64,000 nucleotides of DNA from Candidatus Nanohalarchaeota archaeon (GCA_022729235.1 JALDAJ010000001.1:864001-928000); one strand, 5' to 3'; shown: positions 1 to 58,103, numbered from the stretch's first letter. The notes: generated from the sequence alone by a model not told the origin. Made by a program: numbers and translations.

Positions 1-53
1 CCGAGCGTAACCAGTCCTACCAAGGACGTGCTCTACCGCTGAGCCAGCGGGGC
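1..53 (-). tRNA. tRNA-Thr(GGT), 5' exon plus start of a probable 37/38 intron; runs off the window
   Basis: Reverse complement reads GCCCCGC-TG-GCTC AGCGGTA GAGC-A-CGTCC-TT-GGT-A; the following sequence does not continue as a normal 3' half. Confidence 0.85.
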
Positions 54-193
54 AACGGTTGTTGGTCCGCTTCAGAAACTCTGGGTTTCGTCAGCGGGGC
101 GTGTATCTTGTTGATAGGTGGTAAGTTCTTTAAATTCGAAGGTTGTTGTTCAGTGTATCAGAATTTAAGTTTTGCCGTAAGCTGGTTCTCTGC

Positions 194-589
194 ATGACGG
201 ATGAGGGATTCCCGGATAGGGACGAGTTGTGTAGTTTTAATGAGTATCTCTTAGACGGGACTGAGTATCTGGAGGTCGTTGAAAGGTTGGAAAATACTGA
301 GTATGAGCGGGATGAAGTTGCGGAGGCTTTGAATGAACTGGCTGAGGACCCTGAGCTCTTGGAGTTCCTGAATGAGGTTAAAAGAGGGCATAATGATTGG
401 AAGCGTCTGTACGAGATTTACGGTCGCTCTTTTAATGATTACAGGAAGCGTCTGGAGTCATGTGGCATGATAAAGTCGATTGACAAGTGCGGCAGGGAAA
501 GAGATTTTGGGCTGACCTGGCTGTCTCGGAAGTATTTTGAACATCTTCAGAATTTCGATACGGATAGTTTGAGGAGTGCTTCGGATTAG
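194..589 (+). CDS. hypothetical protein, possible C-terminal winged helix
   Basis: Acidic ORF from ATG 194; RKRLESCGMIKS..RDFGLT resembles a wHTH wing. Confidence 0.6.
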   Translation: MTDEGFPDRDELCSFNEYLLDGTEYLEVVERLENTEYERDEVAEALNELAEDPELLEFLNEVKRGHNDWKRLYEIYGRSFNDYRKRLESCGMIKSIDKCGRERDFGLTWLSRKYFEHLQNFDTDSLRSASD

Positions 590-599
590 TTTCTGCTGG

Positions 600-1478
600 T
601 TACATCGCGACCAGTACTATGCCGGCTATCAGTATCAGCGATCCAAGGAGTTTCTGGAGTACGTGGGTTTCCCCGAAGATCTGACCGCCGGCTATTATTG
701 TCAGCGGTATCTGCACCTGGAGTACAGGGATTACCTTGCTTGCCTCCGCAAGTGATAGTGCGGTCAGTATGGATAGGTATGCTCCTGCACCGGCAAGCCC
801 TGCGACGCTGTAGACTATTTTCCGTGATGATAATTCGTTCCTGAATGTCTCGATGTGATCTCCGTTCCTGCCCTGGAGGTAGCCGTTGATAGCTATCGCC
901 ATGGTCAGGAGTATGAAAAACGTGTATACTTTGGGGTCAAGTGTCTGTGTAACGTACCGGTCTGTTACGGCTGCAACCCCGAATACAGCTGCTGATGCGA
1001 GAGACAGCTGTGCGCCTCTGTCTGTTTTCAGGTTGGTGAAGGGTTCCAGGAAGTGAGTCCTGTTTTCCAGGAGGACGATGTAGCTTCCCAGCGTTACAAG
1101 TATTATACCTGAGCCGAGGCTGAGTGTTATGACTTCGTGGAGTATTATAACTCCTAGTACGGCGACGAATACTGGCTGGAGACGGCTTAGAGGCATCGCG
1201 ATTGATAGGTCGGTTTTCTTGAGTCCGTGGTTGAGAGCGAGTATGCCGAATACGTTCGCCAGTCCTGAAAGCAGGATGAAAGGAGCGAACTGTGTTAAGG
1301 TATCAAGGTGTGTTGTGGAGATATAGTAGAGGAAAACGGGTAGGTAGAAAGCTGTGGATATCACGGCGTATATCGATGTGTAGGTTACTGCCGAGGTGTC
1401 CTCCATGACTTCCTTGCTAATCACTGCCACTGCTGCAAAAAGGATAGCTGCGATTAATGCGGTGTAGAACCAGAGCAT
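600..1478 (-). CDS. EamA/DMT family transporter
   Basis: About 10 hydrophobic segments in two repeats; LSRLQPVFVAVLGVIILHE motif. Confidence 0.9.
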   Translation of the reverse strand: MLWFYTALIAAILFAAVAVISKEVMEDTSAVTYTSIYAVISTAFYLPVFLYYISTTHLDTLTQFAPFILLSGLANVFGILALNHGLKKTDLSIAMPLSRLQPVFVAVLGVIILHEVITLSLGSGIILVTLGSYIVLLENRTHFLEPFTNLKTDRGAQLSLASAAVFGVAAVTDRYVTQTLDPKVYTFFILLTMAIAINGYLQGRNGDHIETFRNELSSRKIVYSVAGLAGAGAYLSILTALSLAEASKVIPVLQVQIPLTIIAGGQIFGETHVLQKLLGSLILIAGIVLVAM

Positions 1479-1510
1479 ATGACTTCTCTAGAAACTTGGC
1501 GTTGAAATAC

Positions 1511-1672
1511 TTATCCTGCGAACTGGTCGTTCTTCTTTCTCAGGTGAGGGTAGCCGCATTTCCTGCAGGATGTTTTCTCCGGGTTAGTGGTTCTGTTACG
1601 GGCGTTGCATCTCCTGCAGATGTAGATGTTTCCGAAAACCCTTTCTTCAGCTTCCTCGAATTTCTGGGCCAT
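1511..1672 (-). CDS. rpl40e: 50S ribosomal protein L40e
   Basis: Manual translation MAQKFEEAEERVFGNIYICRRCNARNRTTNPEKTSCRKCGYPHLRKKNDQFAG (53 aa); C4 Zn finger typical of L40e; GGTGA RBS; not in ORF track. Confidence 0.93.
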   Translation of the reverse strand: MAQKFEEAEERVFGNIYICRRCNARNRTTNPEKTSCRKCGYPHLRKKNDQFAG

Positions 1673-1710
1673 TAGATGTTCACCTTAGTTACCGTTGGCG
1701 GACTTTAACT

Positions 1711-2244
1711 TTAAGTAACCTTCAATACTTCTCTCACTGGTTCCAGGTACGGCTCCCGCATCTCCTCTCCGGATTCTTCCAGGTCTTGCAGGGTCCAGTA
1801 CCGTGCTTTTTCAGCATCATCGCCGGCATTAACTCCTCCTTCGACTTCTTCCTTACTTATGAGGTAGACAAGTACCAGGACGTAGCCTCTTCCAGGCTGT
1901 TCTATGAAAACTGTATCGAAAAGCTCTAATTCATCTGGATTAGCCTCAACCGAGGTTTCCTCTTTTAGCTCCCTGGCGGCTCCTTTCTCTGGTTCTTCAT
2001 CCTGCTCCAGGAAACCTGCAGGAATACTCCATTTACCCTTGTCCGGCTCGATTCCGCGTTTTATCAGGAGCGTCTCCTCGTTTCCAGTAACTACCACTCC
2101 TGCCGCAGGTTTGGGGTTCTGCCATATGACTTCTTCACAGGTCTCGCAGTAGAACCGTTTTCTGTCGTCTACGTACTTTGTCGACAGTTCAGAGCTGCAG
2201 AATGGGCAGAACCGCGGGGTTCCAGGACAGGATAGGTTGGTCAT
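1711..2244 (-). CDS. Nudix hydrolase with N-terminal Zn ribbon (ADP-ribose pyrophosphatase-like)
   Basis: FCPFC..CETC plus Nudix box GFLEQDEEPEKGAARELKEETS. Confidence 0.9.
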   Translation of the reverse strand: MTNLSCPGTPRFCPFCSSELSTKYVDDRKRFYCETCEEVIWQNPKPAAGVVVTGNEETLLIKRGIEPDKGKWSIPAGFLEQDEEPEKGAARELKEETSVEANPDELELFDTVFIEQPGRGYVLVLVYLISKEEVEGGVNAGDDAEKARYWTLQDLEESGEEMREPYLEPVREVLKVT

Positions 2245-2358
2245 GAGGGATTTTGAGGGAGTAGTGCTCTAATTTGTTTCTGTTACCTGTGGTGACATGT
2301 ATCATTGTTCGAATATGATGAACAGTATTTAAGGTTTGGTGTTTCTCCCAACCCGGAA

Positions 2359-2958
2359 ATGGCGAAAGAGTCAAGAGAGGTAGATGGAGAGGAAGTTTAC
2401 GGCGAGATAAACCCTGTTCGCGAGTACGAGGGTGTCGATGTCGAGCAGTTTGAGAGGATGACTGGCGCGCCTTACAGGCACTGGAAAATGCAGAGAGGAG
2501 TTCCCCATGATGGATCAAAGAATGAGACGGATAAATACGATATTGGCTTTCACGATATCGAAGATGTCTACCTTCTCGCAGTGCTCGGGAGGGATATGCT
2601 TGAAAGCTACGGCGATTCTGGTTTCGGTGATATCCTCGAGGTTTTTGAGAAGACAGACTTCGACAACCCGTACGATGAGATAGGTCACGAACTCAAGAGA
2701 GACAGGGGAGGGTACACCTTCCTGGACTGGATGGAGGAGGAACCTGTCCAGAGCCTTACAGAAAGCTACGGCTGGAAAACCCCCGGTCATTTCGACCAGA
2801 CAGTTCAACGTCTAGCCACATTTACTAATCATATTGACTCCGCGCTAGATGCTGAAGGTCCTTACAGCGAAGGAGTGCCTGCTGTACACCTTCAATCTTA
2901 CAGGCAGGGCGCACAACGGGCAGAAGAGCTTGTCCGGGAACTTGAAGACTTGGTGTAG
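2359..2958 (+). CDS. hypothetical protein
   Basis: Acidic ORF; likely ATG at 2359; no recognised motif. Confidence 0.65.
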   Translation: MAKESREVDGEEVYGEINPVREYEGVDVEQFERMTGAPYRHWKMQRGVPHDGSKNETDKYDIGFHDIEDVYLLAVLGRDMLESYGDSGFGDILEVFEKTDFDNPYDEIGHELKRDRGGYTFLDWMEEEPVQSLTESYGWKTPGHFDQTVQRLATFTNHIDSALDAEGPYSEGVPAVHLQSYRQGAQRAEELVRELEDLV

Positions 2959-2973
2959 TTGTAGAAACGAAGT

Positions 2974-3031
2974 CGCGGAACACAGCGTTTGAACCCGAAA
3001 CGCTGTTCGAGCACTTTTCGAATACGAAAAG
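2974..3031. repeat. degenerate copy of the tRNA-Asp 3' end plus hairpin-rich spacer
   Basis: 2974-2997 matches 3032-3055 at 19/24; hairpins ACAGCGTTT/AAACGCTGT and CTTTTCG/CGAAAAG. Confidence 0.65.
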
Positions 3032-3136
3032 CGCGGAGCGCGGGATTTGAACCCGCGTCCTCACCGCGCCGCCCATACAACAGACGTTGATATGGTTGAC
3101 AGGGTGAGATGATGGGCCGGACTACACCAGCTCCGC
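3032..3136 (-). tRNA. tRNA-Asp(GTC) with 30-nt intron (3067-3096) at 37/38
   Basis: Acceptor GCGGAGC/GCTCCGC; anticodon stem TCACC/GGTGA; T arm GCGGG-TTCAAAT-CCCGC; BHB with CTGT/GCGG central helix. Confidence 0.95.
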
Positions 3137-3210
3137 GTGAATCTGCAAACTGTAAATCGATATTTAACTGGAATTCTTTTAAACACTTAAGCCTCCAGAG
3201 GTTTGACAGG

Positions 3211-4461
3211 ATGTCAGAAAGATATGTTATAATCGGTGACGGTATCGCAGGAGCCGCGGCTGCAGAGACTATAAGAGAAGAACAGGGATACGCAGAGATC
3301 GCGGTCCTCACTGATGAGTCCGAGCCGCTTTACAACCGAATCATGCTGAAGACGTATATGAAAGGCAAGCTCCCGCTCCAGTACACGCGCGTCCACGATA
3401 AGAGCTGGTATGAGGAGAGAGACATAGAACTTGAGCTTGAGACCCGGGTCGTTGATGTTGATACGGAGGATAATACTGTCAGGACGGAGAGCGGCGACAC
3501 ATATGATTACGATAAACTGCTGGTCGCGACAGGCGGTTCACCGAGAAAGCTGCCGTGTGATGAGGGCTACGACAACGTTCACTACATGTGGACGATGGAC
3601 GACGCCAGGAAGATGCGAGAGGTCGCTGAAGAATCGGAGCGCGCTGTAGTTATCGGCGGAGGTCTTCTTGGAATCGACTTCGCGGTCGTCTTCGCAGAGC
3701 ACGGCGCGGACGTGGACTACCTCATACGCGGTGAGAACTGGTGGAGACGCGGTCTCGATAGAGAGGGTGCGGAGATAATCCACGAGAAGCTGGAGGAGAA
3801 AGGAGTCAACATAGTAACAAATACTGAGGTCGAGGAGTTTGAAACCGAAGATGGTGAGGTCACTGCCGCAGTCAGTAAAGAAGGGAAGCATTTCGAGTGC
3901 GACACTGTCGCGGTTGCTATCGGACAGACACCGAACAGCGACTTCATCAACGTGGAGAAGAACGATAGAGGGATGATCAAGACTGACAAGTACCTCCAGA
4001 CCTCTGAATCTAACATCTATGCGGCGGGAAACATGGTCGAGTACGACTCGCCCGTGTTCGAGCGCAGGCTCTGCAACGGCTCCTGGGACCACAGCGAAGA
4101 GATGGGAGAGACTGCCGCGCTTAACATGGTGGGCGCAGATTTCTCAGACGAGAAATCCTGCTCTGAGCAACAGTCTGGAGAAGACTGGTGCGGGCGAGAT
4201 GAGTTCGACTACGTCAACACCTACGGCGTCGGCCACTTCGATGTACAGTTCCTGGCGATCGGTGACTGGGATGGAGAGCCAGTTTCAAGAGACTATGATG
4301 CAGAGGGACACTACAGAAGGTTATTCTTCCGAGACGATAGACTGGTTGGCGCGGTTATGATAGGGTACACGAGAGGCCAGGAAGAAATCAGGAGGATGAT
4401 ACGGGAGAAGGAGAAGGTCGATGACAGGGAGAAACTTCTGGATAAGGATTATGGGAAGTGA
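3211..4461 (+). CDS. FAD/NAD(P)H-dependent oxidoreductase (ferredoxin/rubredoxin reductase-like)
   Basis: GDGIAG, ATGG, GGGLLG and T..SNIYAAG motifs; start at 3211 because the longer ORF overlaps the tRNA. Confidence 0.92.
   Translation: MSERYVIIGDGIAGAAAAETIREEQGYAEIAVLTDESEPLYNRIMLKTYMKGKLPLQYTRVHDKSWYEERDIELELETRVVDVDTEDNTVRTESGDTYDYDKLLVATGGSPRKLPCDEGYDNVHYMWTMDDARKMREVAEESERAVVIGGGLLGIDFAVVFAEHGADVDYLIRGENWWRRGLDREGAEIIHEKLEEKGVNIVTNTEVEEFETEDGEVTAAVSKEGKHFECDTVAVAIGQTPNSDFINVEKNDRGMIKTDKYLQTSESNIYAAGNMVEYDSPVFERRLCNGSWDHSEEMGETAALNMVGADFSDEKSCSEQQSGEDWCGRDEFDYVNTYGVGHFDVQFLAIGDWDGEPVSRDYDAEGHYRRLFFRDDRLVGAVMIGYTRGQEEIRRMIREKEKVDDREKLLDKDYGK
4127..4200. repeat. three-hairpin palindromic insert, in-frame in the oxidoreductase gene
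   Basis: GATTTCTC/GAGAAATC, TGCTC/GAGCA and CAGTCT/AGACTG hairpins between imperfect direct repeats about 60 nt apart. Confidence 0.65.
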
Positions 4462-4549
4462 AGATTTTTGAACGTAGTAATGATTCTTGTACACGAACAA
4501 AGATGTTGTTACCAATAAGTTAATAAATAATTTGTTGTGGTTATATTGT

Positions 4550-5170
4550 ATGGAACTTTCCTCGCTGGATTCTCGTAAGAAGTATACGGAAGAAGATCTG
4601 ACTACATATTATCATGGCGTCAGCTGTGCCTCATGTATAGAAGGAATTTTAGATGAGGGAGCATTGGTATCCAAGAACAGGGGGGAAAGCATAGGCTATG
4701 ACATTATGGTTACACACCTCCATGAAGACATAATCAGGCACGCTGGCTCGAATATCACGAAAGTTAATCTGAGCGATGCTGAAGCTGTTAAATCCTATGT
4801 AGAAGAGCATAATGAAGAATTAATGGAGGCAGGAACCTGCTATACAAAGTGGCTTATGGATGAGTCTGTAGAGTACGGAAGAGGTTTAGATTTTAAGAAT
4901 GATCTTGTTTGGTTAGCGAGGGTTAAAGAAGAAGCGAATAACTATTCTGCTACAGAAGAAGTATGTAATAAGAGGTCAGGAGGTATTTTCGAGTTATCTC
5001 TACCTGAGGGAGATGTACTGAATATGGGGATAAGAGGAGGAGTTCCTGGCGACGTACCCTTAGAGTTCGCCGATGTACTCTATCTTGAAAACATGAATGA
5101 GGAAGAGGGCGAAGAAATATGGCTGGAGTTCGTAAGCTCCAGATATGATGTGAGGATTAAACGGATTTAG
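4550..5170 (+). CDS. hypothetical protein, possible ADP-ribosyltransferase (ART) fold
   Basis: YYHG..IEGILDEGALVS, VWLA..EANNY, GGIFEL, VPGDVPLEF; AT-richer than neighbours. Confidence 0.5.
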   Translation: MELSSLDSRKKYTEEDLTTYYHGVSCASCIEGILDEGALVSKNRGESIGYDIMVTHLHEDIIRHAGSNITKVNLSDAEAVKSYVEEHNEELMEAGTCYTKWLMDESVEYGRGLDFKNDLVWLARVKEEANNYSATEEVCNKRSGGIFELSLPEGDVLNMGIRGGVPGDVPLEFADVLYLENMNEEEGEEIWLEFVSSRYDVRIKRI

Positions 5171-5174
5171 GAGA

Positions 5175-6161
5175 CTACTCCACTTCATCCAGTGTGTCCA
5201 GTGCTCTTGGACTTACCAGTGCAAGGTCCTGGAAGTCCTTGGTCATTCTGGGGCAGGCGCAGTTGACGTAGATGTCGATTCCGTAACCGCGGTAGTCTGA
5301 TTCGAAGATGCGGTCTTCGACGAATAAGTAGACGTCCTTGCCGTGTTTCTCCAGTTTCTCCTTCGCTATTTCTACGGCGCGCATGTAGTTCTGGCCTTTC
5401 TTCGATGAGGTGATGATTCCCCACTTCTGCTTGTCCTTGTACTTCATGACGCGGGCGATTTCCGCCTTCATCTCGTCGTCCAGTGAGTTCGGTGGCTCGA
5501 CCCAGATATGTTTCTCGTAGGGATCGACCACGTACACCTTCTTGCCGGTCTCCGATACCTGCGAGGGATGGAAGTGTCCCGAGCCGAGGAAGACGAACGC
5601 GTCGACTTTCTCCGCGATGTTGTGCGCGGCGCCTGCGTCGCATCCGAGCACCTGTCCGGGTTCCGAGGTTCGTAGACCTGTCTTACCTTCCACGACATCA
5701 TAACCCTTGTCTTCAAGGAACTCTCTGGCGGGTTCGGCGCGGTCCATGTACTGTGTGACGCCGACAAGCCCGAGTTTATCCCCCTCGATCTCATCGTAAT
5801 GCTCCTCCAGGACACTCATTATATCTCGGTCCTCGCGGTAAGGAAGGTAGTAGACGTCCGCGTCCATCATGTCCGCTCCTTCAGGGTGGAGGAACCGTGT
5901 GTGTCCGATGTGTATGAGTGCGTCCGCGTCCATCCTCTTCGCTTTCTCATCTGCGATACCGCAGGCGCCGAATGTTGATGCGCCGACGATGACCGGTTCT
6001 ATATCATGTTTTCTAAGCCTGTCAGCGTACTCTATAATCTGCGGTTTGATGCCGTCAGGACCCTGTAACCCGATGCGGTTGTAATCCTTTTCTCTGACCT
6101 CTTCCAGGACTTCTTCAAAAGTCTCGTAGTTAAACTTTTCCCGCTCTTTTTGTTCTGGCAT
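5175..6161 (-). CDS. dph2: diphthamide biosynthesis enzyme Dph2
   Basis: GLQGPDG, FGAC, HIGH, GQVLGC, GSGHFH, KKGQ and ACPR motifs with three Fe-S cysteines. Confidence 0.95.
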   Translation of the reverse strand: MPEQKEREKFNYETFEEVLEEVREKDYNRIGLQGPDGIKPQIIEYADRLRKHDIEPVIVGASTFGACGIADEKAKRMDADALIHIGHTRFLHPEGADMMDADVYYLPYREDRDIMSVLEEHYDEIEGDKLGLVGVTQYMDRAEPAREFLEDKGYDVVEGKTGLRTSEPGQVLGCDAGAAHNIAEKVDAFVFLGSGHFHPSQVSETGKKVYVVDPYEKHIWVEPPNSLDDEMKAEIARVMKYKDKQKWGIITSSKKGQNYMRAVEIAKEKLEKHGKDVYLFVEDRIFESDYRGYGIDIYVNCACPRMTKDFQDLALVSPRALDTLDEVE

Positions 6162-6186
6162 ACTGTCTTTATAAGCCGCAAGCTTT

Positions 6187-7704: not shown

Positions 7705-7768
7705 AGTTACAGTATTCTGTTTATTTCCTAATTAAACCCTTCCTCCAATATGATTCTGGGGGAGGAAG

Positions 7769-8185: not shown

Positions 8186-8188
8186 GTA

Positions 8189-40565: not shown

Positions 40566-43493
40566 CTAACATTTTGAATAGCCACAACCTGGACACTTCT
40601 TGCAGCCTTCGATGATGGCGAGCATGCCTCCGCAGTCCGGGCATTCTGGTGTTGTGCCGTCTTTGACGAGTTCGGCGGCGTCTGCCTGTTGCTCTACTTC
40701 TGTCTTGCCGGCGTTCTGTGTCTTGGTGTCGTCTTCTTGTTCGAACTCGTCCACTGTCTGCTGTGGTGCGTTTCCGCCTTCGAGGTGGCGTTTGAATGCT
40801 TCGGCGATGGCGTCGGGGACTGAGTGGATCTGTGTTCCCTGGTCCCAGGCAATCTGTGGTGAGCGGATATCGTCCAGTTGCTTAATGACTTCTTCCGCTG
40901 ATGCTCCGCTTCTCAGTGCGAGCGAGGTCATGCGTCCTAGTGCCTGTGTGAAGCTCTGGGTGTATCCTCCGCTCTTGCCAAGGTTTGCGAATACTTCGAA
41001 CGGTCCGTAGCCTTCGGCGTCGTTGATGGTGACGAATAGGTCGCCGTAGGCGGTCTCTATTTCCTGTGTGGTGCCGGAGACCTGTTTCGGTCGTTCCTTG
41101 ACTCCGCGGTCCTGTCCCATGGAGGTGTGTCCGCCGTTGCCTTCTGTGTCGGCTTCTACTCCTTCCTGTGTTATCTCCTGGTCAAGCCCTTCTTCCCTGA
41201 CTTCGAGGTCTGTCTGTGATGCGACTTCTTCGAACTCGTTGCTCTGCAGTAGGGATTCTGCTCCGCCGAATTCTTCGACGATTTCGTGGAGCATGTCGAC
41301 CTTGTCCATGTCGGTGAGCTGGTTGTCAGCGTTCTGTTTCATGACTTCTGTCTCGCGTGTTCCATCTCTGTACACGGTCATGCCTTTGATTCCCTTGTCG
41401 TACGCCCTCATGTATGCGTCGCGTACATCCTGTTTGGATGCGTCGTTTGGGAAGTTGCAGGTCTTGCTGATGCCGGAGTGGTTGTGCTCCTGGAATGCTG
41501 CCTGGATGTCGACGTGTTCCTCTGGTTTGACTCTATCAGAGGTGACGAAGAGTTCCTTCATCGCTGGCGGTAGGACGTCGTTGCTTAACGAGTCGACTCC
41601 TTCCCATTCGTTGTTCCGCATCTTCTCCTCTACTTCTTCACGTACCTGGTCGACGTCGATGCCGTTGGCTTCCAGCGCTTTGATGAAGTAGTCGTCGAAC
41701 TCGACGAGCATGTCCTCGCCCTGGATGTCCTTGGCGACGTTCTTAAAGTAGGCGACCTGGAAGATCGGTTCGCATCCTCCTGAGGTGTTGCCTATCATGC
41801 TCGTGGTCCCGGTGGGTGCGATGGTAACCGTGTTGTGGTTTCTCATCTCCAGTCCGTCTTCGAAATCTTCAGCGTCGTATCCGCCGCTCATCTTGTGGAA
41901 CCATTCCTCATACTCGGTTGGTTCAGCCCACTTGGATTTCTCCCATTCTCCGAACGTTCCTCTCACGTCCGCGAGCCTGTGGCTTTCCTCGACGGAGAAC
42001 CTTGTGATTAGTCTCTGGATTTCTTTTGCGGCTGCCTGTGATTCTTCAGAGCCGTACCGGATTCCGAGCTGGACAAGCATCTGTGCGAATCCCATGAGTC
42101 CTAACCCGACTTTTCTCATCTCACTGACTTTTTCCTCGATTTCTTCGAGAGGGAAGTCGCTCATCGTCACGACGTTGTCGAGGAACCGTGTCCCGATTTT
42201 TGCGATTCTTTCGAGTTCGTCAACCTTCATGGCTTCCTGGACGTACTCCTGCATCGCGATGTCGAGTTCTTCCTCGTCGCTGTACTCGATGTCGTGTTCA
42301 GCGCACCATTCGTGGAAGTTGAGTCCCATGCCGTCGCCCTGGTCCTCTACCAGTAGCGAGAGGTTGATGTGTCCGAGGTTGCATGCCTCGTAGTTTTCAA
42401 GCGGTTGCTCCGCACAAGGGTTAGTTGCTTCCATGCGGTGTTCCGGGTGTTTTTCGACGTCGAATGAGTGCTTGTCGTTCGCCTCGTCGTAGACGTAGAA
42501 TCCTGGTTCTCCGTTTCTCCAGGCACCGTCGACCAGGGTCTCCCAGATGAACCTTGCCGGGAGCGTCATCTCTTCGCCCGGTTCGAGTTCTATGTCGAAC
42601 TCTTCGATTTCTTCGCCGAAAGTCTGCGCGAAGTCTCTCCAGAAGTTGTCATCCTTGCCCTGGTCGCTTCCGGATGCTTCAGGGTACCAGTCTTCGTCGC
42701 TGTTGTAGAACTCCGCGGTCTTTTCAGTTACGGTGTGTGGTTCGTTGTCGGAAGGATTGACAAGTGTGTATTCTTCATCGTTCTTCACCGCCTCCATGAA
42801 GTCGTGTGTTAAGCCAACTGAAATGTTGAAGTTGGATAGGTTGCCTTCCTTTCTCTTCGAGGTTATGAACCGGAGTACGTCAGGGTGATCGATGCGCATG
42901 ATTCCCATCTGTGCGCCCCTTCTTTTTCCGCCCTGTTTGATTGTTCCGCACATGGTGTCGAAGACCTGCTGGAAAGTCATCGGTCCGGAGGCGATTCCTC
43001 CTGTCGATGAAACGGCGTCTCCTTTAGGTCGTAGCAGGTGGAATGGGTATCCTACGCCTCCTCCTGTCTGGAAGATGTTCGCCGCGTCGTGTACCGCTCC
43101 GAAGATCGAGTCCATGTCGTCCTCCGGGTGTACCACGAAGCACGCGCTCAACTGCTGGAGTTCTGCTCCCGCGTTCATCAGTGTCGGCGAGTTAGGCATG
43201 AACTTCAGGTTGGTCATCAGTTCGTAGAACTGTTTCCACGACTTCTCATAGTCTACGTCATCGTATTCTTTATCCGGCTGCGCCACATTCTTTGCTACAC
43301 GTTCGAACATCTCCTCCGGAGTCTCCGTCAAGTTGCCGTCCCTGTCTTTGAGGAGGTATCGTGCGGGCAGTATCCGTTCGTACGCGTTCTCCGTCAGTCG
43401 TTCTTCTACTGTGTCACCTGTCACACGTTTGACAGGTAGCTGGAATTCAGATTTTGAGGAAACATCGTTGGTTTCGGTAACAGTGTCAGTCAT
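40566..43493 (-). CDS. nrdJ: class II (adenosylcobalamin-dependent) ribonucleotide reductase with C-terminal TSCPD/Zn-ribbon
   Basis: [44 protein letters not shown]. Confidence 0.96.
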
Positions 43494-50384: not shown

Positions 50385-50509
50385 CTTTTTCACCAAAAGA
50401 AAAGCCGAACTGTAATCGACTTTATACATGTACGAAACCGGGGAACACACTTAAAAGCGTACCCTATCGCTCAAAGAGTTTTTAACAACTTTTATGTGGT
50501 AAAGTGTAT

Positions 50510-50851: not shown

Positions 50852-50853
50852 AC

Positions 50854-51762: not shown

Positions 51763-51854
51763 AGAGAATCCTTGCCCTCACCTGTTTATTATAGTTAGCA
51801 GACAGATCAAGGTGATGTCTGTGCAGTCAAAAAACAGGTATTTTAGACAATATA

Positions 51855-51901
51855 TTTGATTTAAAACCTGTAAACCGGTGTATCTTTTCATTTAAATCAA
51901 A
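51855..51901. promoter_or_regulatory. 11-bp perfect inverted repeat in a divergent promoter region
   Basis: TTTGATTTAAA-N25-TTTAAATCAAA. Confidence 0.45.
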
Positions 51902-51933
51902 CTAATCTTTTTTACCAACTGAAAGGTGATATA

Positions 51934-52290
51934 ATGAATGGAAATTCGGATAAAACACATAGACGCCCGGAAAACCGTGTAAGTGAAATATTTGATGCGC
52001 TTTCATCAGGGACACGTAGACATACACTTGACTACCTTAGAGACTGGGAACAGAGCATTCACAGGGCAGATATAGCACGGCAGATAGAAGACAGGTTGAA
52101 AGAAGATGTTGAAGAAATCAATGTGCGTCTCGGACACGTACACCTCCCGATGCTGGATGACATAGGTGCCGTCGACTATGATAGAGACATGGAAGACGCC
52201 CGATACCAGGGCGACGACCTTATCGAAGAGGCGCTAGACATCGCTCTCCAGCTTGAAGAACAGGTTGGTGACAGGACAGACTATCTTTGA
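51934..52290 (+). CDS. haloarchaeal-type winged-helix protein (DUF7344-like)
   Basis: FDALS..RR..L..L and L.H.HLP.L...G.V.YD. Confidence 0.85.
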   Translation: MNGNSDKTHRRPENRVSEIFDALSSGTRRHTLDYLRDWEQSIHRADIARQIEDRLKEDVEEINVRLGHVHLPMLDDIGAVDYDRDMEDARYQGDDLIEEALDIALQLEEQVGDRTDYL

Positions 52291-52346
52291 TGTAGCCCTG
52301 CACCAGGAAAACATTAATAAGTGCTACCAAGTAATAACAACATATT

Positions 52347-53603
52347 ATGACTGAAGAACGTACTAGTTCACGGAGACATTTTATGAAAACAGCTGCTGGT
52401 GCAGCAGCACTTCTAGCAGGATGTAATACGTCCGGAGATACAGAGACACAGAGTGAATCAGACGACGTAGATATGGATGGAGTCAACGAGAACCTGGACC
52501 CCCAAGAAGACGGGCAGCATGAAGAACTAGCAGATACTGAAACTGTTGAAGATGCTATCGAGGAATACAGTGAACATGTTTCAGATAACTACGATGGAAT
52601 TGAAGGAAAAGAACTGGTAAGTCTTACTGATACAGGATCCTATAACAGGCAGTCACTGAAAGTAGATGTCAAGCTGGATGAAGTGTTTGATGCAGCAGAC
52701 ATTGACATCGATGAGCTGAACGCCTACGAGATTCTGAAATCGAGAGACATGGATCACTTCGCTGATCACGTGGGATCCACGATTAGAGAGGACTTCATAG
52801 ATCCGCTTCTGGATATTACAGGCGAATATGCGAGCACTGAGCATGATAATGACGAAGGATATGCGTTCTTTTCGCTTAGAATGCACTCCGCTGACGACAC
52901 GGAGTTCGGACTTACGGTTAACGCCGATACCCTTGATGAGGTAAGCAACGAACTGGAACAGGCTGAAAACGAAAACTCGGTGGTAGAAGACCTTGTTCAG
53001 GAACACACGGGCGCCACAGCACCCAAAGAAATGCGTGATGGCAGAATATTCATCCCTGAGGGTATGAGGAGAACAGTGGAAATCAACGGAGCGGAGACTG
53101 AGATATACATTGAGGATGTGACCAGAGACGATAATGGAACCGGATGGGCGTACGTGGATATCAATAATCGAGGGGAAGATGACGATGGTCATATACTTAC
53201 GGCCGAGGGCAGCAACCGTCTCGTTGGATGCAGCTGGCTGGAGAAAGACGAGGTCTCTATCAACCCAGATCCTTACAGCGACGGTGTCTGGTTCGAACTG
53301 GACCAGGACTCTTTAAGCGAGTACCACGGCGAGTGCGCCTGCGACCCCAAGAACGATCATCTGGCGACAGGTCAAGAGGAGACCTATACCGTGGGACACC
53401 AGGAAACGACCGCTGAAGTCGTCGCGGTCGATGAAAGCGATGAGGCGTTAATAAGGATAGACGGCGAACTTGCCTATATCGAGGAGGGAGAAACGTATAA
53501 CACTGATAACGGCTTCAGCTACAGGGCAGAAAATATATTCGACATGGAGCACGAAGAAGGAGTCGTAGAGCTCGCCGTCGCCGAGGACGAGTGCTACGAG
53601 TAA
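52347..53603 (+). CDS. Tat-exported acidic lipoprotein
   Basis: SRRHFMK and LAGC lipobox; repeated beta-rich C-terminal modules. Confidence 0.82.
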   Translation: MTEERTSSRRHFMKTAAGAAALLAGCNTSGDTETQSESDDVDMDGVNENLDPQEDGQHEELADTETVEDAIEEYSEHVSDNYDGIEGKELVSLTDTGSYNRQSLKVDVKLDEVFDAADIDIDELNAYEILKSRDMDHFADHVGSTIREDFIDPLLDITGEYASTEHDNDEGYAFFSLRMHSADDTEFGLTVNADTLDEVSNELEQAENENSVVEDLVQEHTGATAPKEMRDGRIFIPEGMRRTVEINGAETEIYIEDVTRDDNGTGWAYVDINNRGEDDDGHILTAEGSNRLVGCSWLEKDEVSINPDPYSDGVWFELDQDSLSEYHGECACDPKNDHLATGQEETYTVGHQETTAEVVAVDESDEALIRIDGELAYIEEGETYNTDNGFSYRAENIFDMEHEEGVVELAVAEDECYE

Positions 53604-53616
53604 ATCTCTCTCGTTC

Positions 53617-54459
53617 TTAGTCCCTCAACTCTCTTATCTTCTCTATATTCTCTTTATAGCTCTTCCCGTCGCTTGTAGGCGTTTCAAGCATCATGGGTAG
53701 GTCTTCAAACTGTTCCGCGTTGATAACGTTCCTGAACCCTTTTTCTCCTATATTACCTTCTCCGATATGTTCGTGGTTGTCTTTTTCACTGCCCTTTTCA
53801 TCCTTTGAATCGTTGAGGTGCAGGACCTTCACCCGTTCAAGTCCGATGTCCTCCTCGATTTCCTGCAACATGTCCCGGAAACCTTTCTCCTCCCTGAGTT
53901 CATAACCGGCGGCGTGGGCGTGGCAGGTGTCGATGCAGACACCGATTTTTTCATCCGGTGTGTCCGCGGAGTCTATCATCTCCCGTAGTTCTCCGAACGT
54001 TTTTCCGAGCGTTGTACCCTTTCCGGCAGTGTTCTCAAGCAGAAGCGTGACGCTTTCCGGGATGTCAAGGGAGTCGATACCTTCCGCGATACGTTCGATA
54101 CCGTTTTCGCGACCACTCCCCGTGTGTGCGCCAGGGTGGAAAACAATGTATTTGACGCCAAGTTTTTCAGCAGCGTCCAGTTCGTCCTGGAGGCAGTTAA
54201 CTGACTTCTCGAACAGGTCGTCTTTCGGTGTTGCCAGGTTGACGAGGTATGTCGAGTGGATTACATATGGCTTCTGATCATTATCCGCCATGAGTTCCTG
54301 GAAATTTTCGCCTTCTTCATCGCTGTATTCCGCGACTTTCCAGCCCCGCGGACTCCCTGCGAATATCTGTCCGCAGTTACCGCCGACTTCTTTCTGTCTT
54401 TCGATTGCTTTTTCAACTCCACCAGAAACCGAAACGTGTGCACCTACTCTGAAAGTCAT
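53617..54459 (-). CDS. nfo: endonuclease IV
   Basis: GAHVS, H..YL.NL, FHPG, ENTAG, DTCH, HLNDS, D.H..IG.G. Confidence 0.96.
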   Translation of the reverse strand: MTFRVGAHVSVSGGVEKAIERQKEVGGNCGQIFAGSPRGWKVAEYSDEEGENFQELMADNDQKPYVIHSTYLVNLATPKDDLFEKSVNCLQDELDAAEKLGVKYIVFHPGAHTGSGRENGIERIAEGIDSLDIPESVTLLLENTAGKGTTLGKTFGELREMIDSADTPDEKIGVCIDTCHAHAAGYELREEKGFRDMLQEIEEDIGLERVKVLHLNDSKDEKGSEKDNHEHIGEGNIGEKGFRNVINAEQFEDLPMMLETPTSDGKSYKENIEKIRELRD

Positions 54460-54596
54460 GGAACTGTTTTGGACAGGAGCTTCAAAAACTGTTTTGGTGA
54501 CCTACTTCTCGACTATATCTCCCCTGATATTCTCGTCAATGTCTGTAGTTCAGGGGAATCGAAAGAAATTAAATTTCTGCCTGAATTTCCTAGTTT

Positions 54597-55511
54597 ATGG
54601 TTTTGATATCTGATTTTATTTTATTTGCTATTTTAGCTTCTGTTTTCTGGGCTGTTTCACTTGTAATTAAAAAAGACGTTATATCTAACAGAATCGATAG
54701 TTCAGTAACAGTTGCCTTAATCGCCGGTGTAACCAGTTTTCTCGTCTCTCTTTCGCTGCTTTTAACCGGTAATATAGCGTTTCCAAGTCTCTACTTGTTT
54801 GGAGTTCTAGTATTCAGTGGCGTACTATATATGGGAGGTGTACTTGGATTGTTTGAGGCTATGAAAATAGGAGAGGTTTCACGTCTTTCTTCCATGACAA
54901 AACTTTCCTCCGTTTTTACCCTTGTTCTCGCCACAATTTTTCTGAACGAATACTTTACTCTTCAGAAATATGCAGGCATCACGATGATTATCGGAGGTGC
55001 CGTGATGGTATCTTCAGAGGATTTTGGCCGTGAGTTCTTTGATTTGAAGGCTAATCGTGCTTTCTGGACGATGTTTGTCTCCATGTTTTCTATCGGAGCC
55101 AGCTGGGTTGTCATGAAGTATGCTACTGAACTATCCAGTTACTGGAACGTGTTTTTCTGGTCCCGGCTCGGTGTTGCCATGACTGCGCTATTAGTGCTTT
55201 TGTATCCTCCTGTACGTTCACCGGTCTTTGGAGTTATCAGAAATTTCCGGGTTAAGAGACCTGACTTCATAGCAGTAGCCGAGGTTGCGAACACGTCAGG
55301 AGTCTTCCTGAACACTTTGGCATTAAGCCTAGGACCTGTTTCTCTAGTAGCGGCTGCATCTTCTACAACACCGCTGTTTGTATTATCAATTGTCATACTT
55401 CTGACTTTGATTAAGAAAAAAAGTTTCAGGGATGACATAGGTAGGAAACCGTTTCTGATGAAGATTTCTGCTGCTACCATGGTAGTTATCGGTATTTATC
55501 TGATAAGCTAA
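54597..55511 (+). CDS. EamA/DMT family transporter
   Basis: About 10 TM helices in two repeats; LATIFLNE. Confidence 0.9.
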   Translation: MVLISDFILFAILASVFWAVSLVIKKDVISNRIDSSVTVALIAGVTSFLVSLSLLLTGNIAFPSLYLFGVLVFSGVLYMGGVLGLFEAMKIGEVSRLSSMTKLSSVFTLVLATIFLNEYFTLQKYAGITMIIGGAVMVSSEDFGREFFDLKANRAFWTMFVSMFSIGASWVVMKYATELSSYWNVFFWSRLGVAMTALLVLLYPPVRSPVFGVIRNFRVKRPDFIAVAEVANTSGVFLNTLALSLGPVSLVAAASSTTPLFVLSIVILLTLIKKKSFRDDIGRKPFLMKISAATMVVIGIYLIS

Positions 55512-55542
55512 TAACGCAGGGGAAAAAATAAGGGGGTGATAG

Positions 55543-55698
55543 TTAATGAGTGTCCTCGATGCCCTGACGGATCTCGTCTTCTTCCAGCTCCATTTCGTGT
55601 TCTTCGCGGGCATGGCTCTGTACTATGTCAACGAGTTCGTTTTCTCTATCAGCCACAGGTTCCGCACCGCACACAGGGCAGGTGAATGCTACTGCCAT
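55543..55698 (-). CDS. small Zn-binding protein (DUF1059-like)
   Basis: Manual translation MAVAFTCPVCGAEPVADRENELVDIVQSHAREEHEMELEEDEIRQGIEDTH; GAGGTG RBS; not in ORF track. Confidence 0.8.
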   Translation of the reverse strand: MAVAFTCPVCGAEPVADRENELVDIVQSHAREEHEMELEEDEIRQGIEDTH

Positions 55699-55765
55699 TT
55701 TCAACACCTCTCACTGTAGAGTCAAGCTCGTTTAAAATAAGCACTGCTATAGAGGACTGTATCAT

Positions 55766-56326
55766 TCACGTGTCGTGGTCCTGGTAAGGCTCCCCATACT
55801 TGTCGCTGAGCAGGTTGACCGCTGCCTTTGTTCCGTCTCCCATCGCGAACGCGGTCTGATAAACCCAGTAACGGATCAGTCCTGCAGCGTAGAGACCGCC
55901 CATGACCTTGTTGTCCTCATCTGTGACGATGTGCCTGTCCATCCAGTACGGACCTTCCTTACTCTCTTCAAACTCCACGTCAAGAGGCTTAAGGTAGTCA
56001 GTCATACCCGCACTTGCCAGGACAACGTACTCAGCCTCATATTCATTTTCTTCAGCAGTCACTAGAAAGCCGTTATCCGTCTTCTCCAGTTTCTCGACCT
56101 TTTCCTCACGGAACTCGCCATTGAAATCCTCCAGTTTTTCTCTTCCGTTCCTGAGAAGCTCCTGTCCAGCGATATAGTCATGACCGACCAGGTTCTGGAT
56201 GTTGGAAGTGTTGTAGACCAGACTCTCATCGGAGTCAAGAACAAGTGTGTCCTCGCCGGCTTTTGCAGTGTAGACAGCAGCCTGTAACCCGGCGATACCG
56301 CCACCGATAACGACTACATCTTTCAT
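55766..56326 (-). CDS. short thioredoxin-reductase-like flavoprotein
   Basis: GGGIAG, LASAG, GLYAAG, Q..A.GDG..AA; no NADPH domain. Confidence 0.85.
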   Translation of the reverse strand: MKDVVVIGGGIAGLQAAVYTAKAGEDTLVLDSDESLVYNTSNIQNLVGHDYIAGQELLRNGREKLEDFNGEFREEKVEKLEKTDNGFLVTAEENEYEAEYVVLASAGMTDYLKPLDVEFEESKEGPYWMDRHIVTDEDNKVMGGLYAAGLIRYWVYQTAFAMGDGTKAAVNLLSDKYGEPYQDHDT

Positions 56327-56374
56327 ACAAAGTAATAGAGATAGAAAAAATAAGAAATGAAGGGCTGTATAGCC

Positions 56375-56977
56375 CTAATGTATTTCGACTATGTCCTGGT
56401 AGCGCTCCTGTACGCTTGACCAGTCGACTACGTCGAAGAAGTTGTCGATGAAGTCTCCGCGGTCAGGTCCGTAGTCGTGGTAGTAGCTGTGCTCCCAGAC
56501 GTCGAGCGCGAGTACCGGGTGTGCGCCCCAGACTGCTCCCTGGTCGTGCTTGTCGACGACCACGTTGTGCAGCTCGTCGCTGTACGGTATGTAGACGAGT
56601 AGCGCCCAGCCTCCTGCAGCCTTCGCAGCTTCTACAAACTCCTGTTTCCAGTTCTCGTAGGAGCCGAACTCTTCCTCGATACGTTCCCTGAGCTCGCCTT
56701 CAGGCTCTCCTCCACCACTTGCGGACATGGAGTTCCAGAACACGTCGTGCAGGATGTTCCCACAGAAGTTGTGCGTGAAACTTCTCAGGATAGAGCCGGT
56801 CCCGGAGAAGTCGCCTGACTCCCGCTGGTTTTCCAGGTCTTCCTCCGCCTGGTTCCACCCGTTGACGTACCCCTGGTGGTGTGTCTTGTGGTGCCAGTTT
56901 ACTACCTGTTCGGATATCGCAGGTTCGAGAGCGTCTTCATCGTATGGAAGTTCTATAAGTCTTTGTTGTTCTGTCAT
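56375..56977 (-). CDS. sod: Fe/Mn superoxide dismutase
   Basis: LPY..ALEP, HH..HH..YV, LH..FW, DVWEHSYY. Confidence 0.97.
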   Translation of the reverse strand: MTEQQRLIELPYDEDALEPAISEQVVNWHHKTHHQGYVNGWNQAEEDLENQRESGDFSGTGSILRSFTHNFCGNILHDVFWNSMSASGGGEPEGELRERIEEEFGSYENWKQEFVEAAKAAGGWALLVYIPYSDELHNVVVDKHDQGAVWGAHPVLALDVWEHSYYHDYGPDRGDFIDNFFDVVDWSSVQERYQDIVEIH

Positions 56978-57095
56978 TGTAGAATTCACCTTAAAATGTA
57001 ATGCGGGAGCTACGTTAAACTGTTTTTGGAGTCTTCTCTGGATAGAAATAAAAATAGAAAGAAATGTGGTGGTAAACCCTTAAGGAGGCTCAGGT

Positions 57096-57776
57096 TTACT
57101 CTTCTTCGGTTTCTTCCTCAGTTTGCTCTCCGAGTTCCTCTTCCAGTTCTTCTTCATCTATCTCTGGCTGCTGCATCCCCTGTTCCTGCATCATTTCCAT
57201 CTGCTGGATAGCCTGGTCAATATTCTCTCCCTGAGGGAATAGGATTTCTCCATCCGGTGAAACGTACATCTCTACGGTCTGGGTATCTATCTCTCCTTCC
57301 ATCGTCTGTCCCTCCATCGATATCTCTGCCAGCCACATACCGTTTCTCTCGGTAACTGCCTCTACCTGTACATCTTCAAGCTGATCCATTCCTGAAGCAG
57401 CATCCGCATACGCCTGTACTGATTCCTCTACATCACCGGGCGCCACCTCCGTATCCACACCATCTAATCCTGGAACGGACACGAAACTGGCGGCTACAAG
57501 ACCTGCAACAAGTCCTAGAACTAGACCTCCAACGAGGGCAGAACTAGGTGAGATCGAGCTGAGAAACATTTCGTCGACAGCTTCTTCTGCTCCTTCTTCC
57601 TTCATCTCTTCCTCAAGCCTTTTCTCGAGCCACTGCCTGACCGTTTTCCTATTCTTTCCTTCTGCTTCTGCCTCTAGAAGCCTCTCATAATCAGGATCTT
57701 CCAGCTCAAGGATCTCGTTTTTAGCCTCCTCTACAGTACCACTGAGAATGTCCTCGTAACTATCGTTATCAGCCAT
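57096..57776 (-). CDS. single-pass membrane protein
   Basis: Central TM helix, YVSPDG..LF motif, acidic tail. Confidence 0.75.
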   Translation of the reverse strand: MADNDSYEDILSGTVEEAKNEILELEDPDYERLLEAEAEGKNRKTVRQWLEKRLEEEMKEEGAEEAVDEMFLSSISPSSALVGGLVLGLVAGLVAASFVSVPGLDGVDTEVAPGDVEESVQAYADAASGMDQLEDVQVEAVTERNGMWLAEISMEGQTMEGEIDTQTVEMYVSPDGEILFPQGENIDQAIQQMEMMQEQGMQQPEIDEEELEEELGEQTEEETEEE

Positions 57777-57854
57777 GTTTCTACTTACTAGAAAGAATCT
57801 TTTAAAAACACCTGTGGACACACATGAGAAGAGACACTGAACGGAAAGGAGAGT

Positions 57855-57927
57855 TGGGGTGGGAGGGATTTGAGTCGAAGAAACAAGTTCTTCTCAATCA
57901 AATCGCTCCTGGAGCATATCTCTGATA
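57855..57927. repeat. exact 19-bp duplicate of the tRNA-Trp 3' end plus hairpin-rich spacer
   Basis: TGGGGTGGGAGGGATTTGA at 57855-57873 and 57928-57946. Confidence 0.85.
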
Positions 57928-58103
57928 TGGGGTGGGAGGGATTTGAACCCGCAACCTTCCGCTAGCTCCTGCAAGTTTTAATCATCGGAATCGAAGGCAA
58001 GCCTTCTCAAACCGACACGTCAGACGAGTCGGTGTTCCTCATACCTCCAAAGTTGGAAAACTGCTCTGGAGGCGGACGCTCTCCCAAGTTGAGCTACCAC
58101 CCC
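57928..58103 (-). tRNA. tRNA-Trp(CCA) with 102-nt intron (57964-58065)
   Basis: Acceptor GGGGTGG/CCACCCC; anticodon stem TCCGC/GCGGA; BHB with CTCC/GGAG helix. Confidence 0.95.
57964..58065 (-). ncRNA. intron-encoded box C/D-type guide for Cm34 of tRNA-Trp
   Basis: CTTTGGAGG is complementary to anticodon nt 31-39; the ATGA box places C34 at +5; K-turn partner ATGATTA. Confidence 0.7.

Follow-up and report, generated by a model that had tools for sequence, protein, structure and literature searches.

Hairpin cassettes beside spare copies of tRNA ends in a nanohaloarchaeal genome: a candidate family of palindromic micro-inserts

Short hairpins flanked by copies of the ends of adjoining genes are dispersed through the genome of a Candidatus Nanohalarchaeota archaeon and through those of its relatives. 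We describe them from a stretch of 64,000 nucleotides (the window; GCA_022729235.1 JALDAJ010000001.1:864001-928000). The genome, a single contig, is 1,027,595 bp long with 48.5% G+C, and the window covers its bases 864001-928000; sequencing runs that contain the window sequence are labelled as soda-lake metagenomes, and no RNA run was found among them. In the window, such cassettes occur at the 5' end of tRNA-Thr(GGT), at the 3' ends of tRNA-Asp(GTC) and tRNA-Trp(CCA), and inside the coding sequence (CDS) of a flavoprotein. On balance, we interpret these loci as members of a DNA-level, non-autonomous family of palindromic micro-inserts, accompanied by local copying of gene ends and distributed across the phylum. 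We favour this interpretation because the hairpins exceed chance expectation, inserts are shared between unrelated tRNAs and presence among close relatives is patchy, and because the spare copies form a decay series while the hairpins occur in both orientations, nested in one another, and in spacers, introns and, in frame, a CDS. An earlier examination of the window from sequence alone (the sequence-only reading) had proposed hairpin inserts with target duplication at these four loci. The family, the flanking copies and the empty sites were borne out; the proposed enzymes, conservation of structure alone and a true target-site duplication (TSD) were not.

Results

Copies of tRNA ends and the anatomy of the cassettes

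Here, G000 is the genome of the window, G001 that of its congener, and further G-numbers denote relatives in the phylum; X1 is a tRNA's own end, X2 its spare copy and H1 the conserved hairpin module. The terminal 14 nt of each tRNA were compared with the adjacent 150 nt, a match at 12/14 or more positions being scored as a copy, and as a control each end was compared with the flank of another tRNA. Own-end copies were present at 12 of the 35 tRNAs detected in G000 (8 at the 3' end and 4 at the 5' end) as against 4/1146 and 2/1146 mismatched pairs (6/2292 in total), while the congener had copies at 8/25 tRNAs against 1/574 and 4/574 in the controls. Among the three window tRNAs only Trp passes this threshold; the Asp and Thr copies share its layout and fall below the threshold, being decayed or short. 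A search of the whole genome with the 16-nt ends of all 35 tRNAs detected no distant 3' copies except for Pro(GGG) and for isoacceptors sharing ends, and no distant copy of the tRNA-Thr end. For Pro(GGG), the 16 nt of the 3' end recur exactly at G000 position 554774, 850 nt downstream of the gene; this copy may represent an undetected tRNA-Pro(CGG) or a classical remnant of an attachment (att) site.

Cassette anatomy was examined at 106 tRNA loci, a set that was partly chosen by pattern and is hence biased, with a 3' copy of at least 13 nt at 33 loci and a 5' copy at 12. In the 3' cassettes X1 is followed by a spacer of 0-25 nt and then by GGATTTGA, after which come a short linker, a hairpin of the form AGAA-stem-loop-stem-TTCG(A), and X2, an exact copy of the final 13-26 nt of the tRNA. 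The element GGATTTGA is the complement of the T loop, is replaced by ATTCGA where the T loop reads TTCGAAT, and is sometimes lengthened into an inverted copy specific to the tRNA. We considered and rejected the idea that the whole target is copied in the inverted arm: complementarity specific to the tRNA's own end was in the top 10% of controls for just 8/33 cassettes and strictly best for 3/33, and the arm is therefore mostly a generic T-loop complement. The 5' cassettes have a mirrored layout with more varied hairpins. A fixed polarity, with the exact copy always on the TTCGA side of the hairpin, describes most 3' cassettes and was also rejected as a rule, several 5' cassettes having other hairpins or the opposite order. 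Cassette inserts range from 37 to 115 nt and measure 37-60 nt in most of the 33 cases; the shortest (37-40 nt) are near-identical at tRNA-Lys(CTT) of G005 and tRNA-Pro(CGG) of G046, and minimal cassettes have no strand complementary to the acceptor end. The four window cassettes fold as nested hairpins that are more stable than shuffled sequences (z = -3.6, -2.7, -2.8 and -2.3).

The outer edges of the copies coincide with the mature termini. In 28/33 cassettes the end of the exact 3' copy is no more than 1 nt from the discriminator, the remaining five halting earlier at mismatches, and identity beyond the discriminator into the flank is at chance level (0 nt in 24 cases, 1 in 5, 2 in 3 and 4 in 1). 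These copies start in the T stem or loop, between -4 and +7 relative to T54. Among the 5' copies, 9/12 start at -1 to +1, and their inner edges lie at positions 13-18, in the D stem or loop. Flanking repeats may be as short as about 4 nt or as long as 26 nt, and no inverted pair is constant except that of GGATTTGA with the tRNA's own T loop. The target duplication that had been proposed was thus half right: flanking copies exist, but they do not look like the fixed product of a staggered cut, being of variable length and stopping, at tRNAs, no more than 1 nt from the mature terminus. Copies range in preservation from perfect (Trp 19/19, Lys 21/21) to degraded (Asp 18/23, Ser, Pro).

Two trailers have more elaborate arrangements. 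At tRNA-Lys(TTT) (G000 728050-728215), three copies of the 3' end stand in a row (21/21, then 19/20) at separations of 55 and 49 nt, resembling a miniature repeat-spacer array. The trailer of tRNA-Gly(TCC) (G000 822713-822860) contains a copy not of its own 3' end but of that of the GCC-type glycine tRNA (...CCCCGACGCCGCA), followed by a second short copy, GACGCCGCA.

H1 as a dispersed repeat

H1 is a hairpin of about 20 nt made up of AGAA, a variable stem of 3-7 bp, a loop of 3-7 nt and TTCGA. Under a strict definition there are 44 copies in G000 compared with a mean of 2.85 and a maximum of 7 in 20 first-order shuffles of the genome; with at least four additional stem pairs the count is 38 compared with 0.95. 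A relaxed GAA...TTC definition (164 matches versus about 100 in shuffles) was too noisy, and the strict definition was therefore used. An excess over shuffled sequence was one of the checks set by the sequence-only reading, as were covarying stems, which were found as both-sided changes in one orthologous cassette (Asp, below). Its suggestion that structure rather than sequence is conserved has to be given up, because the AGAA...TTCGA base and GGATTTGA are kept as sequence too, and the GAGCA core that it described, which is indeed present at three loci, was not found to be a general feature of the family.

Nineteen of the 44 H1 copies lie in tRNAs or within 150 nt of them, a zone that makes up 1.4% of the genome (5 in tRNA introns and 14 in the flanks), and 25 lie elsewhere. 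H1 is present in both orientations and is accompanied by related hairpins, the modules occurring singly, nested in each other's loops or assembled as cassettes; in the tRNA-Phe of G001, a small hairpin sits inside X2. The 184-nt intron of tRNA-Met (gene 92052-92328) has an outer hairpin, AGAAGATC...GATCTTCG, whose loop contains two further hairpins, and homologous nested hairpins are found in the 112-nt intron of a gene that ARAGORN calls Ala(AGC) (285340-285525). The latter gene is probably Asn(GTT) with a long intron, and its orthologue in G001 is called as Asn(GTT).

Away from tRNAs, a looser scan with loci picked by eye gave 30 sites, which lie in short intergenic spacers and beside the rRNA operon, and several of these are bracketed by copies of gene ends. 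The bracketing sequences include GTGGTGTAAAA, which is the stop codon and the ribosome-binding region of the following gene, GAATGGGCGG... from the 3' end of a CDS, AGATGAGTAA from a start region, and ATGA, a stop/start overlap present in duplicate.

Turnover and distribution among relatives

Closely related genomes differ in which tRNAs carry copies. In G001, exact copies (20-24 nt) are found at Ala(GGC), Glu(CTC), Met, Tyr and Leu(GAG), sites that in G000 are empty or decayed, with no copies at Ala, Met or Tyr (3'). G001 also has 5' copies, at Cys, Pro(CGG), Leu and Lys(CTT), and has no copies at the Trp and Gly sites. The tRNA-Trp 3'-end copy of the window was found in 0/10 relatives, including the congener, which has an identical 3' end, and an H1-like hairpin was present in the tRNA-Trp trailer of 2/10. 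Empty orthologous sites, which the sequence-only reading had named as support for its proposal, were found both here and at the CDS insert described below.

tRNA-Tyr was compared at 30 loci, 29 of which have a readable trailer. Exact copies, 16-26 nt long, are present in seven genomes, and each agrees with the T stem and acceptor of its own genome, which differ from genome to genome; remnants are visible in others (G000, G048 and G058) and nothing in the remainder. A 68-nt tRNA-Tyr cassette in G012 is not present at the aligned site of G045, with about 82% identity on both sides. The G045 site retains bases resembling the start of the inverted arm and therefore may reflect loss across the hairpin. 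A reading of the spacer after X1 as native trailer was set aside, this pair of sites being readable also as a deletion footprint.

The same inserts recur at unrelated tRNAs. Different genera carry a GGATTTGATAKCCTCC-AGAAAATCTNCGATTTTCG insert at Lys, Pro, Tyr, Ala, Ser and Arg, and the window's Trp insert has homologues in the first tRNA-Lys insert of G000 and in the tRNA-Gly(CCC) insert of G029, which belongs to another family; one insert family thus occupies different tRNAs in different genomes, in support of the sequence-only reading. For the phylum as a whole, 70 genomes were scanned with IUPAC patterns and reversed-pattern controls. The cassette pattern GATTTGA-N10-40-TCAAATCC was found in 39/70 genomes from three families (control: 2 genomes) and the H1 pattern AGAARAYC-N3-5-GRTYTTCG in 51/70 (control: 0). 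The cassette pattern was present in 36/51 genomes with H1 as opposed to 3/19 without it, a comparison among kin that serves as description rather than as a test.

The four loci of the window

Features of the four loci are collected in Table 1. The sequence at each was as the sequence-only reading had described it, with the corrections noted below.

Table 1. Features of the cassette loci, numbered from the first base of the window
Feature	Position	Strand	Remarks
tRNA-Thr(GGT), 5' part	1..53	-	gene = genome 863906-864053, extends left of the window; 76-nt intron
Thr proximal copy, tRNA positions 1-9	45..53	-	GCCCCGCTG on the tRNA strand
Thr 5' cassette spacer	54..73	-	
H1-type hairpin, Thr cassette	74..90	+	AGAAACTCTGGGTTTCG; directly before the distal copy
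Thr distal copy of tRNA 5' end	92..100	-	9/9
X2, decayed copy of tRNA-Asp 3' end	2974..2996	-	18/23 identical; period 58
Asp hairpin GAACAGCGTTTC-GGGTTC-AAACGCTGTGTTC	2978..3008	-	orthologous to a hairpin in G004 and G014
Asp hairpin CTTTTCGTATTCGAAAAG	3014..3031	-	immediately past tRNA-Asp; sequence, fold
tRNA-Asp(GTC)	3032..3136	-	intron of about 30 nt; Rfam 42.3 bits, ARAGORN
X1, tRNA-Asp T arm to discriminator	3032..3054	-	
Pyridine nucleotide-disulphide oxidoreductase (flavoprotein) gene	3208..4461	+	Pfam PF07992 (Pyr_redox_2), E 2.9e-58
Left imperfect direct repeat at CDS insert	4127..4140	+	TGGTGGGCGCAGAT
CDS insert, in frame	4135..4191	+	57 nt (19 aa), ADFSDEKSCSEQQSGEDWC
CDS insert hairpins	4135-4161 and 4171-4187	+	
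Right imperfect direct repeat at CDS insert	4186..4200	+	TGGTGCGGGCGAGAT
X2, exact copy of tRNA-Trp 3' end	57855..57873	-	19/19
Trp 54-nt insert	57874..57927	-	leader TATCAGAGATATGCT, inverted arm, H1 hairpin
H1 hairpin of Trp insert	57875-57894	-	AGAAGAACTTGTTTCTTCGA
Inverted arm of Trp insert	57898-57909	-	GGAGCGATTTGA
tRNA-Trp(CCA)	57928..58103	-	intron 102-106 nt; Rfam 45.7 bits, ARAGORN
X1, final 19 nt of tRNA-Trp	57928..57946	-	T55 to discriminator
H1 hairpin within tRNA-Trp intron	57991-58007		

The Trp locus is the clearest of the four. On the tRNA strand the gene ends ...TCAAATCCCTCCCACCCCA, followed by 54 nt and then by the identical 19 nt, so that the 19/19 match and the period of 73 claimed for it are both correct. 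Besides its H1 hairpin, the intron of this gene contains motifs that we take to be C/D-box-like. Contigs of three metagenome runs, compared with window positions 56500-59500, gave no joint skipping the cassette, a comparison that does not address rare empty alleles. Two of the runs have the filled site with 0 differences, as judged from contigs only and with the proviso that one run may be the source of the genome, and the third yielded nothing.

The Asp cassette is common to G000, G004 and G014 (3/8 loci with tRNA-Asp). Compared with the other two genomes, the orthologous hairpin of G000 has three both-sided stem changes. The period of 58 had been given correctly, but the identity, put at 19/24, is 18/23 by our count.

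At the Thr locus, CAGCGGGGC is found at 45-53 and 92-100 with a period of 47, exactly as proposed. The Thr copy had been said to lack the hairpin core, which is in fact present as the hairpin listed at 74-90. Positions 64-72 of the spacer are an imperfect inverted copy (6/9) of the tRNA 5' end, the fold pairs CCGCU with AGCGG around the hairpin, and a TATA-like AATTTAAAGA lies about 28 nt upstream of the distal copy on the tRNA strand.

In the flavoprotein gene, the imperfect repeat of 14-15 nt has a period of about 59, close to the figure of about 60 that had been suggested, and alignment shows a real in-frame insert of 57 nt that is missing from 12/13 orthologues. The G004 protein has a 30-nt in-frame insert (10 aa, ADLSGDNRGG) at the identical codon position, which opens with GCAGATYTCTC as does the G000 insert; it could be an old insert common to both genomes, since shortened by partial deletion, or the product of a second insertion at a hot spot.

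The tRNA set and the element beside tRNA-Thr

Default ARAGORN detected 0 tRNAs in the window because the genes carry introns, and Rfam located the Trp and Asp genes there. With introns allowed, ARAGORN called 35 tRNAs in G000, 20 of them intron-bearing, including all three of the window. Only 35 tRNAs (32 by Rfam) are detectable in this genome, and expected isoacceptors such as Glu-CTC, Gln-CTG, Lys-CTT, Pro-CGG and Gly-CCC, which are present in G001 or other relatives, are missing. It is likely that additional, heavily interrupted tRNA genes are hidden in G000. A tRNA-Ile with anticodon TAT and a 57-nt intron (G000 992897-993029) represents an unusual means of reading AUA.

Just left of the window, a 25-kb island (G000 838000-864100) abuts the 3' end of tRNA-Thr(GGT). 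It encodes an MCM helicase, GmrSD, an Eco57I-like methylase (1201 aa), a PLD-SNF2 helicase (1245 aa), RadC and two tyrosine recombinases/integrases of 365 and 461 aa, which are the sole integrases in G000. The island is probably an ordinary integrated element with defence genes.

Candidate enzymes

The sequence-only reading had looked to an HUH enzyme, an integrase or a reverse transcriptase encoded elsewhere, and the searches do not support such a co-occurrence. Cas1 (PF01867), the reverse transcriptase domain RVT_1 (PF00078) and the Y1-HUH transposase Y1_Tnp (PF01797) each gave 0 matches in G000; in the phylum they were found in 3/70, 7/70 and 4/70 genomes, respectively, and the 39 cassette-bearing genomes include 2, 3 and 2 of these, so that none of the three can be the general agent. 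The only integrases in G000 are the two of the Thr-side island, and a TnpB model gave only one sub-threshold zinc-ribbon match there. No parent insertion sequence for a MITE (a miniature transposable element with inverted repeats) was found in G000 among Y1_Tnp and TnpB, with DDE families lying outside the search.

tRNA-Gly(GCC) and the intron question

At tRNA-Gly(GCC) (G000 41395-41600) and in its G001 counterpart, only the distal 5' copy supplies the pairing acceptor and D-stem strands, the proximal copy being degenerate. In its cloverleaf fold, the 131-nt precursor has a D loop enlarged by a 48-nt insertion; the repeat AGTGGCTAA stands on either side of this insertion, and its copies pair with each other (GGCU with GGCU) beside AA bulges in what resembles a relaxed bulge-helix-bulge (BHB) motif. 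A strict BHB scan of this region returned two candidates, neither of which yields the expected tRNA. Judged from the predicted fold, the D-loop sequence looks like a 5' cassette that has turned into an obligatory intervening sequence and would have to be spliced. The origin of introns remains open according to the available part of a preprint on Asgard tRNA introns (10.64898/2026.10.13.758758), and direct repeats are reported at intron borders in the portion of another study accessible to us (PMC11782384).

Discussion

If, as we favour, the cassettes are DNA-level insertions, they would be selfish or mutational and, without a transposase of their own, would land in or next to the hairpin arms of tRNAs (the T and D arms) and at other gene boundaries. 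Inserts would survive only where a copy of the gene end leaves the gene whole; once transcribed as leader, trailer, intron or spacer they would be removed by normal RNA processing, and they would be neutral. They could be lost again through deletion across the hairpin or between the repeats. As the way in which the copy of the gene end may be made, we favour template-switching or fold-back synthesis at the hairpins.

Several observations weigh against this interpretation. A copy that starts within the T or D arm and stops precisely at the mature terminus does not follow from DNA insertion, and neither a staggered-cut TSD nor the survival of random insertions predicts so sharp an edge. The precision may reflect a T-loop ruler (a constant 15 nt from position 73), copying of RNA fragments, or selection for a mimic of the tRNA end. 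The set of 33 cassettes is itself biased, having been picked partly by pattern. Searches for Cas1, RVT_1, Y1_Tnp and TnpB in G000 identified no enzyme, DDE families not being among the models used, and the contigs of three runs contain no within-species empty allele at the Trp site. The 'empty' G045 Tyr site may be a deletion, and the direction of gain or loss is inferred at all loci. Finally, the both-sided stem changes of the Asp hairpin and the conserved hairpin base could reflect selection on RNA structure.

This last point leads to the alternative that the cassettes are functional RNA structures, which we regard as doubtful. They would be leader or trailer hairpins, with the tRNA end as the outer strand, acting as processing, termination or stability signals; in variants of this idea, they would mimic tRNA ends and be read by RNase Z or RNase P, or would serve as binding sites for a lineage-specific protein, with H1 as intergenic punctuation. 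Copies that end at mature termini (28/33 at 3' ends and 9/12 at 5' ends), an H1 base conserved over 51/70 genomes, placement of H1 at gene boundaries in transcribed non-coding positions, three compensatory pair changes in the orthologous Asp hairpin and folds stabler than shuffles are all consistent with such a role. However, congeners differ in the presence or absence of a cassette at a given tRNA, X2 decays freely at many loci, H1 occurs in both orientations relative to transcription, and 19/70 genomes are entirely without it. Moreover, a strand complementary to the acceptor end is missing from minimal cassettes, and one copy lies in frame within a protein.

A further possibility, which we hold only tentatively and consider unlikely, is an undescribed process that targets the T, D and anticodon arms of tRNAs, brings in a hairpin and copies the segment from the arm to the mature terminus, so that decay of the proximal copy or a hit in the anticodon loop would lead to an intron. 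If this were true, hits in the T or D arm would leave a tRNA plus a spare end, whereas decay of the proximal copy, as at tRNA-Gly(GCC), or an anticodon-loop hit would make the insert an intron, and nanohaloarchaea would reveal how archaeal tRNA introns are acquired, a route long sought.

Copying by way of RNA is distinctly improbable. Here, fragments of tRNA ends, cut in the T or D loop, would be ligated to hairpin RNAs derived from introns and copied into DNA beside the gene. Archaeal splicing leaves ends that can be joined by tRNA ligase, the outer edges of the copies are RNA termini, the inner edges fall between -4 and +7 of T54, within the T stem/loop, and at 13-18, within the D stem/loop, and identical hairpin modules fill tRNA introns. 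The route is disfavoured because reverse transcriptase is lacking in G000 and occurs in 7/70 genomes, only 3 of them cassette-bearing; in addition, there is no CCA complement at the junction, cassettes are also found at stop/start overlaps between CDSs, where no RNA end lies, and we know of no route by which such ligation products are integrated.

Scars (attL/attR) left where an integrase had inserted an element into a tRNA gene, all but a few dozen bases of the element being lost later, would likewise give a direct repeat of the 3' part of a tRNA ending at the gene's end, as att repeats typically do, and the island beside tRNA-Thr(GGT) has two tyrosine integrases with defence and MCM genes; but this origin is very improbable, as the inserts are mostly 37-60 nt (33 cases) with a common hairpin architecture rather than random remnants, the repeats enclose 37-115 nt of hairpins and no integrase element or remnant genes, the integrases lie in a separate island, copies of 5' ends, CDS-boundary copies and the in-frame insert do not fit, and distant 3'-end copies are absent genome-wide apart from Pro(GGG), 850 nt away, and isoacceptors sharing ends.

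Should the interpretation as DNA-level micro-inserts hold, about a third of the tRNA genes in a 1-Mb symbiont genome have been remodelled at their borders, and the spread over 39/70 genomes without reverse transcriptase, HUH or Cas1 would point to an unknown enzyme or a template-switching polymerase acting with single-base precision. One set of modules would then link border cassettes, nested intron hairpins and one cassette-derived D-loop intervening sequence, and the origin of archaeal tRNA introns would become directly testable. Hairpins beside spare tRNA ends may show how tiny inserts and tRNA introns arise. In practical terms, border cassettes and introns defeat standard tRNA finders and can mislead the annotation of att sites and tRNA fragments.

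Comparison with known systems

In a full-text search that excluded most subscription journals, we found no report of small palindromic repeats in nanohaloarchaea or of tRNA genes with spare copies of their own ends. The cassettes differ from MITEs, having no terminal inverted repeats with a TSD of fixed length (the flanking repeats span about 4-26 nt), and from SINE-like retro-elements, G000 having no reverse transcriptase. Their nearest counterparts are bacterial REP elements, the palindromic elements of Rickettsia and the GC clusters of yeast mitochondria. REP sequences and their BIME arrays, associated with RAYT (Y1-HUH) transposases, are short extragenic palindromes of bacteria. The cassettes resemble them as short, non-coding extragenic hairpins with tens of copies (44 strict H1 versus 2.85 in shuffles) in both orientations within transcribed spacers at gene ends, but G000 has no Y1 transposase (4/70 genomes in the phylum), the hairpin base is AGAA...TTCGA rather than a REP head, copies of gene ends are adjacent, and tRNA introns and a CDS are occupied as well.

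Cas1-type integration is known from casposons and CRISPR repeats. A duplicated target of at least 14 bp, the targeting of tRNA 3' ends, the short inserts and the three-copy mini-array at tRNA-Lys are all reminiscent of it, although Cas1 is absent from G000 and the inserts are one sequence family rather than captured spacers. Transposition has been proposed for BHB tRNA introns of archaea in work on Thermoproteales. As with those introns, related intervening sequences are found at several positions and tRNAs, with direct repeats at their borders and shared intron modules; unlike them, the three cassettes at Thr, Asp and Trp are not within the mature tRNA and do not have to be spliced out.

Palindromic elements of Rickettsia (RPEs) insert into RNA genes as well as protein genes. 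RPEs are palindromes inserted in frame into protein genes of a host-dependent organism with a reduced genome (PMC10969869). The flavoprotein insert is likewise an in-frame palindrome absent from orthologues (12/13), albeit as a single case. RPEs are about 150 bp long and bacterial, compared with modules of about 20 nt and cassettes of 37-115 nt here, and the part of that account available to us describes no association with tRNA ends and no end copying (PMC10969869).

In C. subterraneum, att repeats at tRNA-Thr flank a 1.8-kb element that bears a recombinase, according to the section of the report that we could consult (PMC3293823). Our loci are similar to such archaeal att duplications in that part of the tRNA recurs next to the gene, with the gene end as its boundary; unlike that case, as far as it is described there, they flank 37-115 nt of hairpins and are found also at 5' ends and CDS boundaries. 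The GC clusters of yeast mitochondria are mobile palindromes, about 40 nt long and without a known transposase, that undergo rapid turnover, merger and nesting and have putative target duplications (PMC4478555). They are organellar and GC-rich in an AT-rich genome, and copies of tRNA termini do not feature in the accessible text of that study. The nanohaloarchaeal cassettes nevertheless share with GC clusters, as characterized in that text, small palindromes for which no transposase has been found, turnover between relatives, nesting and flanking duplications.

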